Origin: Escherichia phage vB_EcoS Sa179lw
Direction: 5' to 3' (one strand)
Sequence record: NC_054637.1
Length of the DNA: 46,833 bases
The notes under the pieces were generated by a model. That model was given only the letters and a program-made list of their open reading frames with translations, did no database searches and was not told the DNA's origin. Position 1 is the stretch's first letter, and each line of letters starts with the position of its first letter. The translations under genes were made by a program, and so were the position numbers. Positions 7,245-39,115 of the stretch are shown here, piece by piece.

Positions 7245-7280
7245 CACTAACTATAAACGCCACTTCAATCTACGTCAACA
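7245..7280 (-). promoter_or_regulatory. Sigma70-like early promoter: TTGACG, 17-bp spacer, TATAGT (minus strand)
   Basis: -35 at 7273-7278 and -10 at 7250-7255 read on the minus strand; contains the recurring ATCTACGTCA motif. Confidence 0.6.
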
Positions 7281-10174: not shown

Positions 10175-10222
10175 CAATCTACACCACAAAATAATACCTG
10201 TCAACACCTGTGATATAATCAC
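10175..10222 (+). promoter_or_regulatory. Candidate late promoter for the major tail gene: AATCTACACCAC ... TGTCAACACC ... TGATATAAT (extended -10)
   Basis: Extended -10 TGA+TATAAT at 10211-10219; poor -35; same architecture as 12184-12234. Confidence 0.5.
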
Positions 10223-30789: not shown

Positions 30790-30825
30790 GCATTGACGTA
30801 GAATCATTGTTGATGTAGATTAAAA
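30790..30825 (+). promoter_or_regulatory. Rightward early promoter: TTGACG, 17-bp spacer, TAGATT
   Basis: -35 at 30793-30798, -10 at 30816-30821; carries inverted copies of the ATCTAC(A/G)TC motif. Confidence 0.6.
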
Positions 30826-33595: not shown

Positions 33596-34057
33596 ATGTC
33601 AGATAAACCAATCGGGCGACCGACAGAATACAAACCTGATTACGATGAGCAGGCTTACAACTATTGCCTGCTTGGCGCTACCGATAAGCAGCTTGCAACT
33701 TTCTTTGATGTGAGCGAGCAGACAATAAACGCGTGGAAGCACAAGCACCCTTCGTTTCTTGAGTCCTTAAGGCGCGGAAAGGAAATTGCAGATGCGCGAG
33801 TTGCTCAGGCTTTGTTCAGTAGGGCTACCGGTTATGAGCACCCAGAAGACGATATCAAGGCGGTTAATGGTGAAATAGTAATCACACCAACAATAAAAAG
33901 ATACCCGCCAGACCCTACATCAATGATTTTCTGGCTAAAAAACAGACAGCCAAAATTGTGGCGAGATAAACCTGAGTCGGAAGGTTCTGATGGTGACGGC
34001 GCAATCCATAAAGTGCAGATTGAGGTGATTAGTGCAGATAAGAGTAACGGCAACTGA
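33596..34057 (+). CDS. terS: Terminase small subunit, 153 aa
   Basis: Immediately upstream of and overlapping the large terminase; N-terminal HTH-like segment. Confidence 0.65.
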   Translation: MSDKPIGRPTEYKPDYDEQAYNYCLLGATDKQLATFFDVSEQTINAWKHKHPSFLESLRRGKEIADARVAQALFSRATGYEHPEDDIKAVNGEIVITPTIKRYPPDPTSMIFWLKNRQPKLWRDKPESEGSDGDGAIHKVQIEVISADKSNGN

Positions 34058-35339
34058 GCCACAAGCCAGATACCTGAATCTTAAGTGTAAATTCCCGGCT
34101 TTTATTGCTGGCTTTGGCACTGGAAAGTCAGAAACCATGTGCAACTCAGCACTTCTTGATAGCCTTGAGGGTGGTTCAGATAGTCTGGTCGCTTTGTATG
34201 AGCCGACCTATGACCTCGTGCGTCTTATTCTTGCCCCCCGCATGGAGGAGAAACTAATCGACTGGGGTGTCAGGTACAAATACAACAAGGCAGAGAACAT
34301 AATTTACACGTCATCAGGACAGATGGGGGATTTTGTCCTCAGGACTCTTGATAATCCAGCGCGAATAGTTGGTTATGAGTCGTTCAGGGCAAAGATAGAC
34401 GAAATTGACACCCTTAAGCAAGAACATGCATCTGAGGCGTGGATAAAAATAATTGCCCGTAATCGACAGCGCCCAAGAACTTATATGGATACCTCAGGAA
34501 AGCCAATGAACACTGTTGGCATATTCTCAACCCCAGAGGGGTTCCGGTTTGTTTATGACAGATGGGTAAAGAACAAAAAGGATGGGTACGAAATGGTGCA
34601 GGCAAGCACTATGAGCAACCCTTTCCTTCCTGATGATTACGTTCAGTCGCTGCGAGATAGCTATCCACCGCAACTCATTGAGGCATATTTGCAGGGCGAG
34701 TTTGTAAACCTCACATCTGGCACTGTCTATCCTCAATTCGACAGGAATCTTAATCACAGCGATGAGGAATACAGGACGGGTGAGCCAGCCCATGTCGGCA
34801 TGGACTTCAACGTAGGAAAGATGTCTGCGATTATCCATGTTGAAAGGAATGGCGACCCGATCGCAGTTGGCGAGATACTCGGAGCTTACGATACGCCGGA
34901 AATGATTCGGTTAATAAAACAGCGCCTGTGGAGGGAGACATCAAATGGCGAGTTTGAGAAACTGTGTGAAATTTATGTTTATCCTGATGCATCGGGCGGT
35001 AGCCGTAAAACCGTGAACGCTGGCACGTCAGATATAGCCTTATTGAGAGATGCTGGCTTTCATGTTATGGCTGACAGTAAGAACCCGCCGGTCAGGGACC
35101 GCATCAACTCTGTTAACGCGATGTTCTGCAACGCTGAAGGCGAGCGCAGATACAAGGTAAATACAAAGCTGTGCCCAATCTACACTGAGGCGAGAGAGCA
35201 GCAGATTTACAACAAGCAGGGAGAACCAGACAAAACTCACGATAAGGACCACCCGAACGATGCGGCTGATTATTACATTTATAATAAGTTCCCACTCGTA
35301 CGACCAATGGCAGCAATGCTAATTCGGCGCAGGCGTTAA
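34032..35339 (+). CDS. terL: Terminase large subunit, 435 aa
   Basis: Walker A GFGTGKS near the N-terminus; C-terminal nuclease-like acidic motifs; GTG start after GAGGTGA. Confidence 0.85.
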   Translation: MQIRVTATEPQARYLNLKCKFPAFIAGFGTGKSETMCNSALLDSLEGGSDSLVALYEPTYDLVRLILAPRMEEKLIDWGVRYKYNKAENIIYTSSGQMGDFVLRTLDNPARIVGYESFRAKIDEIDTLKQEHASEAWIKIIARNRQRPRTYMDTSGKPMNTVGIFSTPEGFRFVYDRWVKNKKDGYEMVQASTMSNPFLPDDYVQSLRDSYPPQLIEAYLQGEFVNLTSGTVYPQFDRNLNHSDEEYRTGEPAHVGMDFNVGKMSAIIHVERNGDPIAVGEILGAYDTPEMIRLIKQRLWRETSNGEFEKLCEIYVYPDASGGSRKTVNAGTSDIALLRDAGFHVMADSKNPPVRDRINSVNAMFCNAEGERRYKVNTKLCPIYTEAREQQIYNKQGEPDKTHDKDHPNDAADYYIYNKFPLVRPMAAMLIRRRR

Positions 35340-35342
35340 AAA

Positions 35343-35366
35343 TAAAGCCCTCAAATGAGGGCTTGT
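35343..35366. terminator. Bidirectional terminator between terminase and a convergent gene
   Basis: Hairpin AAGCCCTCAAATGAGGGCTT; T tract on the minus strand. Confidence 0.55.
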
Positions 35367-35369
35367 TGG

Positions 35370-35723
35370 CTAGTGTGTGTACATGATGCTTTTGCACGTT
35401 TTCATTGGCACACCGATTGCATCCCAAAATTCGACGTTTTCACAAGCCAAAAAGCAAAACAGCATTGATTGAGGCCATGAAGAATGAGCACTTTTCCAGT
35501 AGGTGCCGCGCTTGATTTGCTCGGCTTCATCGTTGAGGCAGTGAATAAAGAATTCTGTGCCATCGCTGGTTTCATTCCATTCGTGTGATTTACCCAAGCA
35601 GAAATGGTGCAGAAAGCGGTCTATGTAGGATGATTTGCTTGCTGATATCCCCATTACAATCATTCTGATAACCCTAATAGCATATACGTTCTGCACTTCA
35701 GCACTTCGTTCATGACCTTGCAT
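35370..35723 (-). CDS. Hypothetical protein, 117 aa
   Basis: ORF track; ATG 35723 lies downstream of the promoter at 35768-35800. Confidence 0.5.
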   Translation of the reverse strand: MQGHERSAEVQNVYAIRVIRMIVMGISASKSSYIDRFLHHFCLGKSHEWNETSDGTEFFIHCLNDEAEQIKRGTYWKSAHSSWPQSMLFCFLACENVEFWDAIGVPMKTCKSIMYTH

Positions 35724-35767: not shown

Positions 35768-35800
35768 TAAATCTACATCACCAACATATCTACGTCAACA
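35768..35800 (-). promoter_or_regulatory. Leftward early promoter: TTGACG, 17-bp spacer, TAGATT (minus strand)
   Basis: -35 at 35793-35798, -10 at 35770-35775 on the minus strand. Confidence 0.55.
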
Positions 35801-35834
35801 TTTATTATTGTTGTTGATAAATCCACACCACAAC

Positions 35835-35868
35835 ACTTGACCAATCTACACCGTGCGCATATAGTTAT
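35835..35868 (+). promoter_or_regulatory. Rightward early promoter: TTGACC, 17-bp spacer, TATAGT
   Basis: -35 at 35837-35842, -10 at 35860-35865; AATCTACACC in the spacer. Confidence 0.6.
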
Positions 35869-35896
35869 CTACATCGGAAACATCGGAGGTGCTACT

Positions 35897-36103
35897 ATGC
35901 GCAGCTATGCAGGATTTACACAGGAGGAAAAAGAGCAGGTTTATTCACTGGCGCGTGCTGGTGTGCCTGATGATGTGATTTGCCGTCGGTATGACATCGA
36001 CGAGGATTTCCTGCTGCGCGTCATTGATGATGTCTTCGTTAACCTGCAAGAGAAGCGTGGGTACAAGGGTATCTGCTGCAAGAATGATTTTTTGAGAGGG
36101 TGA
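35897..36103 (+). CDS. Hypothetical protein, 68 aa
   Basis: ATG at 35897 preceded by GGAGGTG. Confidence 0.5.
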   Translation: MRSYAGFTQEEKEQVYSLARAGVPDDVICRRYDIDEDFLLRVIDDVFVNLQEKRGYKGICCKNDFLRG

Positions 36104-36294
36104 TTATGAGAGATTTTGTAAGAGATTTTCTGTTATTGGTATTAAGTACACCATCGCATTGGTGATTGCTTTCCCGCTTATCTGGCTGATTAGATGGGAA
36201 GCGCCAAGTATTGATGACATTCTAAACTGGCAGGTTTTCAGGATTTTTATCGGCTTGTGGATTTTATCAGCCATTGCCGCATGGTGGGTTAATC

Positions 36295-36702
36295 ATGTTC
36301 AGGAATAAACTAAAGAAAATAATCCGCGACGCTGCGGATAAGAAATACACCAAAAAGATTGATATATCATTCATTGACGGCACTGGAATGTACAACCACG
36401 CATGTCATCTGAATGCGGTAAATCGTGCGCGTGATGGGAGTTCGTGCGCAGTGGTTGAGGTTGTGGTGATTGATGACAAATCGGTGACCGCTCATTACAT
36501 CAATATGCAGTCAGACGGTACATACATCGACTACACGCTCGGCTGGCACTGGTCTGGTGCTGATTACCGATTTGTGCGCTTCGTCCCGTTCACGGAATGG
36601 GCTGATATTACTGGCGCGCTAAACAGGCTTAAAGCTGAACTGTGCAAGCCGGTGGCTAAATGGCAGAAGTTGTTAATGGTAACTGATGGTGAACTTTGTT
36701 GA
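36295..36702 (+). CDS. Hypothetical protein, 135 aa
   Basis: ORF track with internal ATG (MFRNKLKK) chosen. Confidence 0.5.
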   Translation: MFRNKLKKIIRDAADKKYTKKIDISFIDGTGMYNHACHLNAVNRARDGSSCAVVEVVVIDDKSVTAHYINMQSDGTYIDYTLGWHWSGADYRFVRFVPFTEWADITGALNRLKAELCKPVAKWQKLLMVTDGELC

Positions 36703-36711
36703 GGTGATGTG

Positions 36712-36906
36712 ATGATTATTGATGAAACAGAAAATGCATATGACATGCACGTAACTGAGCAAGAGCTTGAGGATGGAACCCCTGTCGTAGAGTTGTATCA
36801 AGAGAATGGCTCAGGTGTCGACTCATTTATTGGCATAGACAAACACCAAGCCTCGCAACTAATCGAAGTCCTGCAACGCTGGGTTAATGGTGAGGAGATT
36901 GAGTGA
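36712..36906 (+). CDS. Highly acidic small protein, 64 aa
   Basis: About 16 D/E versus 2 K/R; RBS GAGGTGA. Confidence 0.5.
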   Translation: MIIDETENAYDMHVTEQELEDGTPVVELYQENGSGVDSFIGIDKHQASQLIEVLQRWVNGEEIE

Positions 36907-37136
36907 TGATGAATACCAAACAAAGATACAGGATGGGATATTGCGTCTGGCTGCAAGAGACTATTAGTGATTTTCTTGATAAGAAAATGTTGGCAGACAT
37001 GGTTTATGGATTGTTGTGTTTCCTGCTGCTTATCTCTTTTCCAGTTTCAATGCCGATGGTTGCTGCAATAAGAATGATAGTAACCAAGCGGAATATTAGA
37101 AAACAGTATGCTCGCGATGAACTGATGGAGGATTGA
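36903..37136 (+). CDS. Small membrane protein, 77 aa
   Basis: Hydrophobic segment LADMVYGLLCFLLLISFPVSMPMVAAI; coupled to neighbours. Confidence 0.45.
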   Translation: MMMNTKQRYRMGYCVWLQETISDFLDKKMLADMVYGLLCFLLLISFPVSMPMVAAIRMIVTKRNIRKQYARDELMED

Positions 37137-37139
37137 GTG

Positions 37140-37451
37140 ATGAGCATAAAAAATCCAATGCACCCGGGCGAGTTTCTGCTGGAGGCATTCATGAAGCCAT
37201 TCGGAATTGGTGTTAAGAAAATGGCCGATGCACTTGGGGTTTCGCAGTCAACAGTTAGCAGGCTCATCAACAAGAAGGCTGATTTAACTGCCGACATGGC
37301 TGTCAGATTGTCCGTTGTTGTTGGGAGGTCACCAGAGTCATGGTTGAATATGCAAAACAATTACAGCCTAAATAGACTTACCGCCGATAATGGTCGCTTA
37401 CTGTCATCTTTGAAGCCAATTAAATTTGATTTTGATTACAAGGTGGAGTGA
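37140..37451 (+). CDS. higA: HigA-like XRE-family HTH antitoxin homolog, about 103 aa
   Basis: HPGEFLLEAF...SQSTVSRLINKKADLTADMAVRLSVVVGRSPESWLNMQNNYSL closely parallels the recalled E. coli HigA sequence; no HigB/RelE-like partner adjacent. Confidence 0.8.
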   Translation: MSIKNPMHPGEFLLEAFMKPFGIGVKKMADALGVSQSTVSRLINKKADLTADMAVRLSVVVGRSPESWLNMQNNYSLNRLTADNGRLLSSLKPIKFDFDYKVE

Positions 37452-37654
37452 TGGACAGAAAACATCTTCACGAGATGGCTGTTGAACTCAGAAAAAGGGT
37501 TGAGGGCATCTGGTTTGATAGTCATGATAAATTCAATAATAAGCAGTATCAGGTTTACGCAAAATGCAGGGGGTTGGTGCTCGGCGATAGGATGGAAAAC
37601 GCTGTATTCCATCACAGTAACGCCATGATACACAAGCGAGCTTTCGACTACTGA
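37448..37654 (+). CDS. Hypothetical protein, 68 aa
   Basis: ORF track; ATGA coupling to the HigA-like gene. Confidence 0.45.
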   Translation: MMDRKHLHEMAVELRKRVEGIWFDSHDKFNNKQYQVYAKCRGLVLGDRMENAVFHHSNAMIHKRAFDY

Positions 37655-37664
37655 TACCATGCTA

Positions 37665-37695
37665 TAATCCCTCCATCGTGAGGGATTTTTTATTG
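37665..37695 (+). terminator. Rho-independent terminator before the portal gene
   Basis: Hairpin ATCCCTCCATCGTGAGGGAT followed by TTTTTATT. Confidence 0.65.
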
Positions 37696-37702
37696 GTGAC
37701 AT

Positions 37703-39115
37703 ATGTCAAAAATTGATGCATTAGACGCCTATATACGCGACCGCGTGGCGAACAATAACCGGGCTATTCAACAGCAGCGGCTTTGTGCTGGAGGGAAGAA
37801 TCTTGACCAGAAACATGACAGGTTGTGGCAGGAATGCGGATACCCGCAGGAAATCACCGCTGAGATGTTCCGCTATGCCTACGAACGGCACCCAGCAGCC
37901 GCAGCTGGCATTAACCGCATTATTAATAAATGTTGGCAGAAATACCCCGAAGTGGTAGAAGATGGCGAGGATGACAAGAATTCAACGTCGTGGGAGTTGT
38001 CCATCAATGACATGATGAAGCGTGCATACCCGTTCATCAAAGAGGCTGACAAGCGCAACGCCATCAACCGCTATTCCGCCGTTATCCTGCAAATCCGCGA
38101 TGGTAAACAATGGAGTGAGCCGGTAGACATCACCAAAACACGCCGCATTAAAGATAAATCCATTGTTCGCTTTATTCCTGTGTGGGAGGAGCAACTCCGC
38201 GTCAGTGCGTGGAATAACGACGAAACCAGCGAAGACTACGGTATGCCTGAGATGTACGAATACCAGGAAAGCGCCGTGGAAGATTTCGATAGTGACGGCA
38301 AGCCTGAACGTTCCGTGCAGATTCACCCTGACCGCATTATTATTCTTGCAGAGGGTAGCTTTGATGGCAGCATGTTCAGTGGCATCCCGATGCTACGTGC
38401 TGGCTACAACAGCCTTATCGACATGGCAAAGGTTTCAGGCAGTTCCGCGGAAGGCTTCCTGAAGAATGCCAGTCGTCAGCTGGCTGTTAACTACACGAAG
38501 GATAACGTAACACCAGTGAGTCTTGCGCAGTCGATGGGTGTCGATATTGAAGAGCTCACCGACATCATGAATGAGAACATTGAGGCACTGAACTCCGGGA
38601 TTGACGCCGCTATGTTCACAATGGGCGCGGATGCAAAAGTTCTCGCTGTGACTCCCGCTGACCCAAAACCAACATGGGAAGTGGCTGCCAACCAGTTCGC
38701 TGCGTCAATGGCGCTTCCGTTTACTGTTATTTTTGGGCAACAGACCGGAAGGCTTGCAAGCGATGAGGATAAGATGCAGGAGGCAATGACCGCCAAGCAG
38801 CGCCGCGAAACGTGGGTTGATTATGTCATCTCAATGTTCGTTGAGCGCATGATTCAGTTCGGCATTGTCGATAAAGCACCGGCAAATGGCTACAAAGTTA
38901 AGTGGGATGATTTGCTGGCACCATCGGAACTTGATAAGGCTGAATTGCTGTCCAAGCTCGCCACTGCGAATAAGTCATTCTTTGATGCTGGTCAGTCTGC
39001 GTTGCTGAGCGTCGATGAAGCTCGTGGCATGGTTGGTATGGAGCCGATTGAACTCGACGAAAGCTACCGCGAAGACACGCCTCCGGAAGACGAAAATGAA
39101 GATACTCCGGTTTAA
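37703..39115 (+). CDS. Portal protein, 470 aa
   Basis: Size and position between terminase and the head morphogenesis gene; acidic C-terminus. Confidence 0.65.

Follow-up and report, generated by a model that had tools for sequence, protein, structure and literature searches.

What does an antitoxin do in the genome of a phage that carries no matching toxin? This question is raised by Escherichia phage vB_EcoS Sa179lw, in which a run of small genes between the large terminase gene and the portal gene includes a homolog of HigA, the antitoxin of HigB-HigA modules. The whole stretch of DNA that was analysed, hereafter called the window, is the complete phage genome of 46,833 bp (NC_054637.1). 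A preliminary description of the window had offered two readings of this gene that do not exclude each other: HigA could neutralise a host HigB-type toxin, or it could regulate neighbouring anti-defence genes, as in operons that combine anti-CRISPR (Acr) and anti-CRISPR-associated (Aca) genes. Here, we compared the locus with that of related phages. The region is very probably an insulated hypervariable array of accessory genes inside a constant frame. HigA is one of its rare cassettes and, as we tentatively propose, it is most likely an orphan antitoxin that would act in counter-defence against a host HigB-like toxin.

The window is identical to the IMG/VR contig UViG_2974745789_000001. The phage is a member of a cluster of small virulent siphoviruses around Skatevirus, to which BS5, IME207, KFS-SE2, C1, swi2, DS8 and the BASEL phages Bas77-81 also belong. 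The Skatevirus group has been described as siphoviruses of 46-48 kb that depend on the O-antigen and show marked sensitivity to restriction-modification and to Old (10.1101/2024.09.12.612763). For comparison, 34 IMG/VR loci were gathered with O1, the first gene of the array, as the probe; these are the window and 33 related loci, BS5 among them. All small open reading frames (ORFs) were scanned with the profiles of Pfam, PHROGs, NCBIfam and PADLOC.

The distance from the start of O1 to the start of the portal gene ranges from 303 nt, where O1 stands alone, to 1806 nt in the window, which has the longest array. Clustering of the ORFs gave about 23 cassette families, with zero to about eight small genes per phage. 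The families follow a roughly collinear order: O1 comes first, followed by one of c11, O2, c35, c17, c25 or c59, then O3, the acidic gene, sometimes a membrane protein, sometimes HigA, and finally c0, c20, c5, O7, c4 or c32. Only a few of the 33 architectures are seen again in a second locus, and none of 156 phage records examined by megablast covers at least 80% of the region. The portal gene, which closes the array, is present in all the related loci. HNH endonucleases are interspersed among the cassettes of four loci (L005, L008, L020 and L053), and homing endonucleases inside the array could promote the exchange of cassettes.

The left side of the frame consists of a sigma-70-type promoter and of O1. 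A promoter match of this kind is not above chance by itself, since 4.5 kb contained 3 promoter-like sites, fewer than the 8.2 expected from shuffled sequences; the array promoter is credible because it is near-invariant across the 33 related loci. O1 shows 93-100% identity in all these loci. Its rates of non-synonymous (dN) and synonymous (dS) substitution are 0.009 and 0.31, respectively, and the ratio of about 0.03 is lower than that of the portal gene in the same genome pairs. O1 has no Pfam match. In its AlphaFold2 (AF2) model, with a predicted local distance difference test score (pLDDT) of 81, helices span residues 9-20, 25-31 and 36-53, and the predicted fold resembles sigma region 4 and the DNA-binding domains of LuxR/GerE proteins. 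The Foldseek matches of O1 are domains of these same kinds and fall below significance. We therefore describe O1, with moderate confidence, as a predicted helix-turn-helix (HTH) protein that is sigma region-4-like.

The right side of the frame is a composite element in which an extended -10 sequence overlaps the 5' arm of a hairpin. The hairpin (37666-37687) is followed by a T run and has a folding energy of -16.4 kcal/mol (z = -3.4). In every locus compared (34 of 34), the extended -10 TGNTATAAT shares bases with the 5' arm of the terminator; several different stem sequences occur, and each of them still pairs. The same stretch of about 30 nt would end the array transcript and start the portal transcript. 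Only four TGNTATAAT sites are found in the window, all on the plus strand (654, 10211, 12223 and 37660). Those at 10211 and 12223 lie in intergenic leaders with long ORFs directly downstream, and the site at 37660 precedes the portal gene. These elements are likely promoters of structural operons.

The preliminary description had placed a promoter (TTGACC, 17 bp, TATAGT) and a terminator at the two ends of the gene run, and both of these stand. The genes that it listed between them are indeed found on the plus strand, including the very acidic protein of 64 aa, which has 16 D+E against 2 K+R and a net charge of -14. However, it overlooked O2, which is described below. The array is thus anchored at its 5' end by the conserved promoter, flanked by copies of a motif ATCTACRYC, together with the strongly constrained O1, and at its 3' end by the terminator hairpin fused to the extended -10 ahead of the portal gene.

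Between these anchors, nearly all junctions are built in the same way. First comes the 3' end of the preceding cassette, a conserved sequence with a Shine-Dalgarno (SD)-like GAGG/GGAG in it, then the TGA stop of that cassette, and then GTG ATG as the start of the next one. Most cassettes are preceded by a linker of one of three main classes, all of which end in TGA GTG ATG (Table 1). The 13-mer GATTGAGTGATGA, which is the linker of the acidic class, occurs exactly twice in the window (36897 and 37131), against 0.19 occurrences expected by chance. These two copies bear out the shared 13-nt junction sequence that had been noticed earlier. In the window, a membrane-protein cassette separates the acidic gene from HigA, with a linker on either side. 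In the eight other HigA-bearing loci, the acidic gene directly abuts HigA, via the junction ...GAGGAGATTGAGTGATGAGC, whose variants can be written as ...GAGGAGATT(G/A)AGTGATG(AGC/AGA/AGT/TAT). The sole other copy of the membrane-protein cassette, 88% identical, is found in KFS-SE2, a genome without HigA, where it is located between the acidic gene and c0 and also has a linker on either side. The same linker-flanked cassette in two contexts is direct comparative evidence that cassettes have been exchanged at the linker junctions, and the cassette shuffling suggested in the preliminary description is thus well supported. No integrase gene and no attC-like site was found in the island (all ORFs in 35.3-37.7 kb examined). 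Because an SD-like GGAG/GAGG stands next to adjacent or overlapping stop and start codons, the linker should couple the translation of the following gene. In the proposed scheme, the junctions would do this and would also supply short homologies for the recombinational gain, loss and exchange of cassettes.

Among the small ORFs of the array, HigA is the only one to which the profile scans give a functional label. It scores 102.6 bits against TIGR02607 (antidote_HigA), for which the cutoff is 47.7, and 32.6 against PF01381 (HTH_3), for which the cutoff is 23; its PHROGs family is labelled 'plasmid antitoxin with HTH domain'. The nearest structures in the PDB are GraA, which is the best match, PaHigA, PvHigA from Proteus, and the HigA of CFT073. 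No toxin accompanies it. When the whole genome was searched by tblastn with two PF05015 HigB proteins, the best E-value was 0.85. HigB was also not found in the other 33 IMG/VR loci (BS5 included) or in IME207, and the remaining HigA-bearing loci have no HigB family among their called or annotated genes. The gene directly upstream of HigA encodes the membrane protein, of 76 aa, which has no match to RelE or HigB. Both the call of a HigA-type antitoxin homolog and the remark that no HigB/RelE-type toxin adjoins it were therefore correct, and the latter extends to the whole genome.

The phage HigA proteins form a clade of about 29 clusters, with lengths of 86-110 aa and identities of 60-99%. None of the contigs that carry them exceeds about 48 kb, and the longest are of phage size, 41-48 kb. 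Nine HigA-bearing loci were examined, namely the window, BS5, Klebsiella phage VLCpiS13d and six metagenomic loci. In all nine, HigA is located in the terminase-to-portal island, in the slot after a gene of the acidic family, and never beside a HigB-like gene. HigA is rare in the group, being present in two of the 33 distinct genomes compared. Orphan HigA genes with no HigB upstream are also found in the T4-like Aeromonas phage Aes012 and in the ICP1-like Vibrio phage JSF14, and thus orphan HigA is recurrent in unrelated virulent phages. A search of the literature library for an experimentally tested phage HigA found none.

The closest cellular relative is a HigA of 102 aa on a Rep3 plasmid of ~5 kb, with 60% identity over 75% of the query, and it directly follows a PF05015 HigB. 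HigA-1 proteins with 48% identity to the phage HigA are located downstream of HigB. Furthermore, HigA proteins encoded on Klebsiella and E. coli plasmids of 3.5-3.7 kb are 51% identical over 91% of the query; the single small plasmid examined, a ColE1-type plasmid of E. coli, also encodes a HigB-like toxin of 93 aa. By these relationships, the phage HigA evidently descends from HigB-HigA modules of the plasmid type. On this ColE1-type plasmid (NZ_CP029114.1; locus L047, positions 880-1791), the toxin and HigA genes are divergent and 337 nt apart, unlike the usual co-directional higBA arrangement.

The phage clade retains the HPGE motif and the recognition helix (SQSTVSRLINKK), and it has added a C-terminal tail of its own, at residues about 80-103. 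The pairwise dN/dS of HigA, where dS could be measured, lies at 0.07-0.33 for the whole protein, with 0.04-0.23 at residues 1-80 and 0-0.61 in the tail. These values indicate that HigA is kept under purifying selection and that it is a functional protein, not a remnant. The idea that it is the decaying remainder of a captured higBA module that has lost its toxin, suggested by the plasmid higBA modules among its nearest relatives, is barely credible in view of the overall ratio, of an ORF that is intact in the nine loci and in about 29 clusters, of the fixed slot with its precise coupling junction, and of the conserved phage-specific tail shared by the clade.

We tentatively favour a role of HigA as an orphan antitoxin against host HigB-like toxins. 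If host shut-off or a trigger from the phage depleted a host HigA during infection, a HigB-like ribosome-dependent mRNase would be released. The phage HigA would then bind the freed toxin, and phage translation would continue. HigB-containing toxin-antitoxin-chaperone systems are known to abort phage infection (10.1101/2024.02.24.581848; PMC11980606). Moreover, an orphan DarG-like antitoxin serves lytic T4-like phages in counter-defence, and the authors of that study regard it as the first case from a lytic phage (PMC11257639); in addition, phage accessory regions concentrate counter-defence genes (10.1101/2023.04.06.535777).

Several observations weigh against this role. No array cassette matches a known anti-defence protein, either in the Pfam, PHROGs, NCBIfam and PADLOC scans or by the fold of the acidic protein. 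The best enterobacterial relatives of HigA are only about 51% identical, and at the DNA level the HigA gene has no match in 5,426 E. coli genomes, so that a recent transfer from this species is rejected. As type II antitoxins usually act on their cognate toxin only (discussed in PMC11257639), cross-neutralisation is uncertain. The residues of the recognition helix are strictly conserved in the phage clade; since a pure toxin sponge would not need this helix, its conservation favours retained DNA binding. Finally, the sensitivity of Skatevirus phages to restriction-modification and Old implies that the array gives no broad resistance to those systems.

A conserved recognition helix would be expected if HigA were instead a DNA-binding transcription factor, acting either on the array itself, as an Aca-like autorepressor, or on host or plasmid genes that have HigA operators and that it would rewire. 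The HTH core and the recognition helix are shared with cellular HigA proteins, and no other part of the protein has so low a dN/dS. Repression is an established activity of HigA antitoxins, and mvfR and pel are also under the control of PaHigA (PMC6987408). The Aca idea is reasonable because some Aca families, namely Aca6, Aca9 and Aca10, as well as AcrIIA1, resemble HigA2 and GraA (PMC9410906), and GraA is the best PDB match of the phage HigA. Nevertheless, we regard such a regulatory role as somewhat unlikely. There is no intergenic space, promoter or operator directly upstream of HigA. At the array promoter, the sequence and its flanking repeats are essentially unchanged in genomes without HigA. 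The 200 nt upstream in BS5, which has HigA, are the same as in two relatives that carry O1 only, except for one or two positions, and no promoter change specific to HigA-bearing phages was found across the related loci. Upstream of the -35 element there are only short inverted repeats of 6 nt, and among the related loci this stretch changes little, whether HigA is present or not. The palindrome of the GraA/PaHigA type, TTRACGTYAA, is not enriched in the window (6 matches against 5.35 expected), and none of the matches is at the promoter.

The acr-aca layout proposed in the preliminary description, with HigA as the Aca, is not supported, on the same evidence and on its distribution, as HigA is found in two of the 33 genomes and genes of the acidic family in about 20. 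An aca gene is typically a conserved HTH gene joined to variable cargo. HigA does not show this pattern; the conserved gene of the array is O1, at its 5' end. The profile searches that had been suggested for the small ORFs thus gave an antitoxin, HigA, and no cassette with a known anti-defence match. For the acidic protein in particular, no known Acr or anti-defence match was obtained by sequence or fold in Pfam, PHROGs, NCBIfam, PADLOC and Foldseek, none of which is a dedicated Acr library. If the array has a dedicated regulator at all, O1 is a better candidate than HigA.

The repeats around the promoter belong to a motif, ATCTACRYC, of which the genome has 12 copies against 0.78 expected (at 7268, 10177, 12184, 30812, 35771, 35788, 35844, 35867, 41546, 41573, 44661 and 44688). 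Eleven of them are intergenic, beside promoter-like sequences, and form pairs that are direct or inverted; the one copy that was not placed is at 30812. The two copies closest to the array promoter are essentially invariant across the related loci, with or without HigA. The motif looks like a binding site for a genome-wide regulator of the phage, and this, too, speaks against a link between the repeats and HigA. That O1 acts through these sites is a speculation.

The array could also consist of genes for host takeover, superinfection exclusion or selfish ends, with HigA as a passenger of modest or no effect on fitness. Nearly all cassettes lack an assignable function, HNH endonucleases and small membrane proteins are found among them, and isolates of Skatevirus are still sensitive to restriction-modification and Old (10.1101/2024.09.12.612763). 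We consider this explanation unlikely, however, as purifying selection acts on HigA across a clade that has diverged to 60% identity, and comparable hypervariable accessory regions of phages are generally enriched in counter-defence genes (10.1101/2023.04.06.535777).

An unconventional toxin-antitoxin or addiction unit, in which HigA is paired with the membrane protein, O7 or the acidic protein, is highly improbable. The order of the genes does resemble higBA, with a small gene upstream and overlapping stop and start codons, and a gene of the acidic family is upstream of HigA in all nine loci, directly so in eight. No neighbour of HigA resembles HigB or RelE, however, and an obligate partner among the neighbours was rejected, as each of the candidates, namely the membrane protein, O7, c0 and the acidic gene, is also found in genomes that lack HigA. 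For O7, the c0 family and the acidic gene this is common; the membrane protein is present in KFS-SE2, which has no HigA, and eight loci have HigA but not the membrane protein. A dedicated acidic subtype linked to HigA was rejected as well: the acidic genes that adjoin HigA are of several subtypes, and several of these have counterparts of 86-100% identity in genomes without HigA.

The proposal that HigA is an orphan antitoxin could be joined to that of the array into one larger picture. The array would be an integrase-free, linker-mediated one, in which exchangeable counter-defence genes are driven by a fixed promoter together with O1 as their sigma region-4-like regulator, the linkers both couple translation and recombine, and HigA is the first type II orphan antitoxin of a lytic phage against HigB abortive-infection toxins. 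That all of these parts hold together is rather doubtful.

The other cassettes of the window add to the description of the array. Neither O1, O3, the acidic protein nor the membrane protein has an annotated family in Pfam, NCBIfam or PADLOC, or a functional PHROGs label. O2 is a small gene for a membrane protein with two membrane segments, which is intact (67-69 aa) in BS5, IME207 and C1. In the window, a 1-nt deletion relative to these three phages lies within a T run, at about 36144-36146, and splits the gene into ORFs of 19 aa and 49 aa; O2 is thus a pseudogene here, unless the frameshift comes from an error in sequencing. The O3 family comprises 130 representative clusters, nearly all of 80-195 aa, and its profile gave nothing beyond noise against Pfam and PDB. 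Residues C37, N40, H67 and G83 are invariant and N34, D79 and T81 near-invariant. From the invariance of Cys and His and the near-invariance of Asp alone, the family may be a Cys-His(-Asp) thiol enzyme of some kind. A relative of O3 with 1360 aa, P0228, has 8 matched stretches. The c17 family (L019, L022, L023, L025, L030 and L037), with 163-167 aa, is annotated as 'peptidase HslV family' in Klebsiella phage VLCpiS13d. Of the 33 related genomes, 17 have a detectable relative of O7, and HigA is missing from most of these 17.

In proteins of the acidic family, the N-terminal half, ~35 residues of predicted β-structure, is highly variable, and the C-terminal helix, IDKxQAxQLIEVLQRWVNGEEIE, is invariant. 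The commonest linker between cassettes is the 3' end of this gene, which is conserved. The AF2 model of the acidic protein (pLDDT 75) has a β-β-β-α arrangement. A Foldseek search with this model gave nothing significant in the PDB, where AcrIF24 appeared at a probability of about 0.2 only. A resemblance to the β-β-β-α PUR repeat was also considered, and it is weak and not interpretable.

The left flank of the array has diversified as well. The terminase type of the window is common to just three of the 33 related loci, at 97-98% identity; in those related loci whose genes were called or annotated, the terminase is instead of the Terminase_3 type, with 473-475 aa. The portal gene also comes in two types among the related loci, at about 94-100% and about 66-71% identity. 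The packaging module beside the array is evidently swapped. In two related loci, a gene for an HNH endonuclease is directly upstream of the Terminase_3-type gene. Between the terminase gene and the array promoter there is a second variable slot, which is occupied in the window by a minus-strand gene of 117 aa; the hairpin between this gene and the terminase gene is its predicted terminator. The gene is found in none of the 33 related loci. The minus-strand genes of the relatives in that slot differ, and include a PAPS reductase (L051), an annotated polynucleotide kinase (L037) and others.

Table 1 Positions in the window of the array, its flanking genes and its signals, with the three linker classes.
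Feature	Position	Strand	Details
Large terminase gene, left core flank	34032..35339	+	Terminase_6N/6C type; Pfam PF03237 and PF17289
Palindromic hairpin between the terminase and minus-strand genes	35345..35364	.	8-bp stem, then T run on - strand; perfect 9-nt inverted repeat I3
Minus-strand gene, 117 aa, second variable slot upstream of the array promoter	35370..35723	-	phrog_19403 ('head protein' label), E = 4.5e-60
Four ATCTACRYC copies, bracketing and overlapping the promoter	35771..35875 (at 35771, 35788, 35844, 35867)	+	Motif count
Sigma-70-type array promoter, TTGACC-17-TATAGT	35837..35865	+	10/12 consensus positions; conserved in all related loci
O1, 68 aa, constant leader gene	35897..36103	+	Predicted three-helix HTH
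O2, small two-segment membrane-protein gene, frameshifted	36106..36308	+	1-nt deletion relative to BS5, IME207 and C1
O3, 135 aa	36295..36702	+	phrog_6596
Acidic cassette, 64 aa	36712..36906	+	phrog_13627
Junction repeat copy 1, GATTGAGTGATGA	36897..36909	+	3' end of acidic gene, stop, GTG ATG start of next gene
Membrane-protein cassette, 76 aa, at the acidic/HigA junction	36906..37136	+	Hydrophobic peak 2.28, residues 37-55
Junction repeat copy 2, GATTGAGTGATGA	37131..37143	+	13-mer count
Orphan HigA-family HTH antitoxin homolog, 103 aa	37140..37451	+	TIGR02607; phrog_1381
O7, 67 aa	37451..37654	+	phrog_17303
Composite right boundary	37660..37687	+	Extended -10 TGCTATAAT (37660-37668) over the 5' arm of the hairpin (37666-37687)
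Portal gene, right core flank	37703..39115	+	PF06381; phrog_146
Linker class, O1 3' end			...GATTTTTTGAGAGGGTGA
Linker class, acidic-gene 3' end			...AATGGTGAGGAGATTGA
Linker class, c0 3' end			...GATAAATTCGAAAAGGTGGA

The array can be compared with several known systems. The phage accessory regions described by Silas et al. (10.1101/2023.04.06.535777) are alike in that small genes with fast turnover are located between conserved genes, differ among close relatives and are expected to handle host defences. The array of the window differs from them in an unusually sharp frame, made by the promoter and O1 on one side and by the terminator fused to the extended -10 on the other, in its collinear slots and in its near-universal TGA GTG ATG junction; its role in counter-defence is putative. 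AdfN, the DarG1-like protein of T4-like phages (PMC11257639), is also an antitoxin homolog that a virulent phage carries without a toxin, and the logic, to neutralise a toxin-antitoxin defence of the host, is the same. However, AdfN is a type IV enzyme that reverses the modification made by the toxin, whereas HigA is of the binding type, type II, which normally has narrow specificity, and its activity here is putative. The likeness to acr-aca operons lies in small genes, one of them very acidic, that share an operon with an HTH protein of an Aca-like fold type (PMC9410906). It ends with the HTH gene HigA being the rare element, with a promoter that is the same without HigA, with the lack of an Acr homolog and with the conserved HTH-like O1 at the 5' end. 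Canonical HigB-HigA modules (Rts1, HigBA-1 of V. cholerae, GraTA and PaHigBA) share with the phage protein the TIGR02607 family, the N-terminal HPGE, the HTH recognition helix and the downstream position with an overlapping start. Unlike them, the phage HigA has no HigB, is located in a multi-gene operon, has no promoter or operator of its own and bears the phage-specific C-terminal tail.

In mosaic lambdoid phages, short conserved boundary or linker sequences at gene junctions are points of modular exchange, and in integron cassette arrays interchangeable cassettes are driven by one promoter. The array of the window resembles these in its boundary sequences at exchange points and in its single promoter. 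It differs from integron arrays in lacking an integrase gene and attC-like sites, and its linkers are translation-coupling signals combined with the conserved 3' ends of coding sequences. Hypervariable accessory regions and counter-defence by orphan antitoxins are thus kinds already known. What is new is the combination of a sharply framed array with a near-universal linker, a predicted sigma region-4-like leader and a clade of candidate type II orphan antitoxins in one slot.

If HigA does neutralise HigB, counter-defence by orphan antitoxins would extend from the enzymatic kind, AdfN against DarT, to type II antitoxins of the binding type. Host HigBA modules, including those on the very common small plasmids of the ColE1 type, would then matter for infection by these phages. 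Moreover, the array brings about 23 small gene families together into a compact natural library, in which both the frame and the exchange junctions are clear, and its cassettes can be tested individually since relatives are available as isolates (BASEL Bas77-81, BS5, KFS-SE2 and IME207). The fixed frame and its junctions could also be a natural landing pad for cargo in therapeutic phages of this group.

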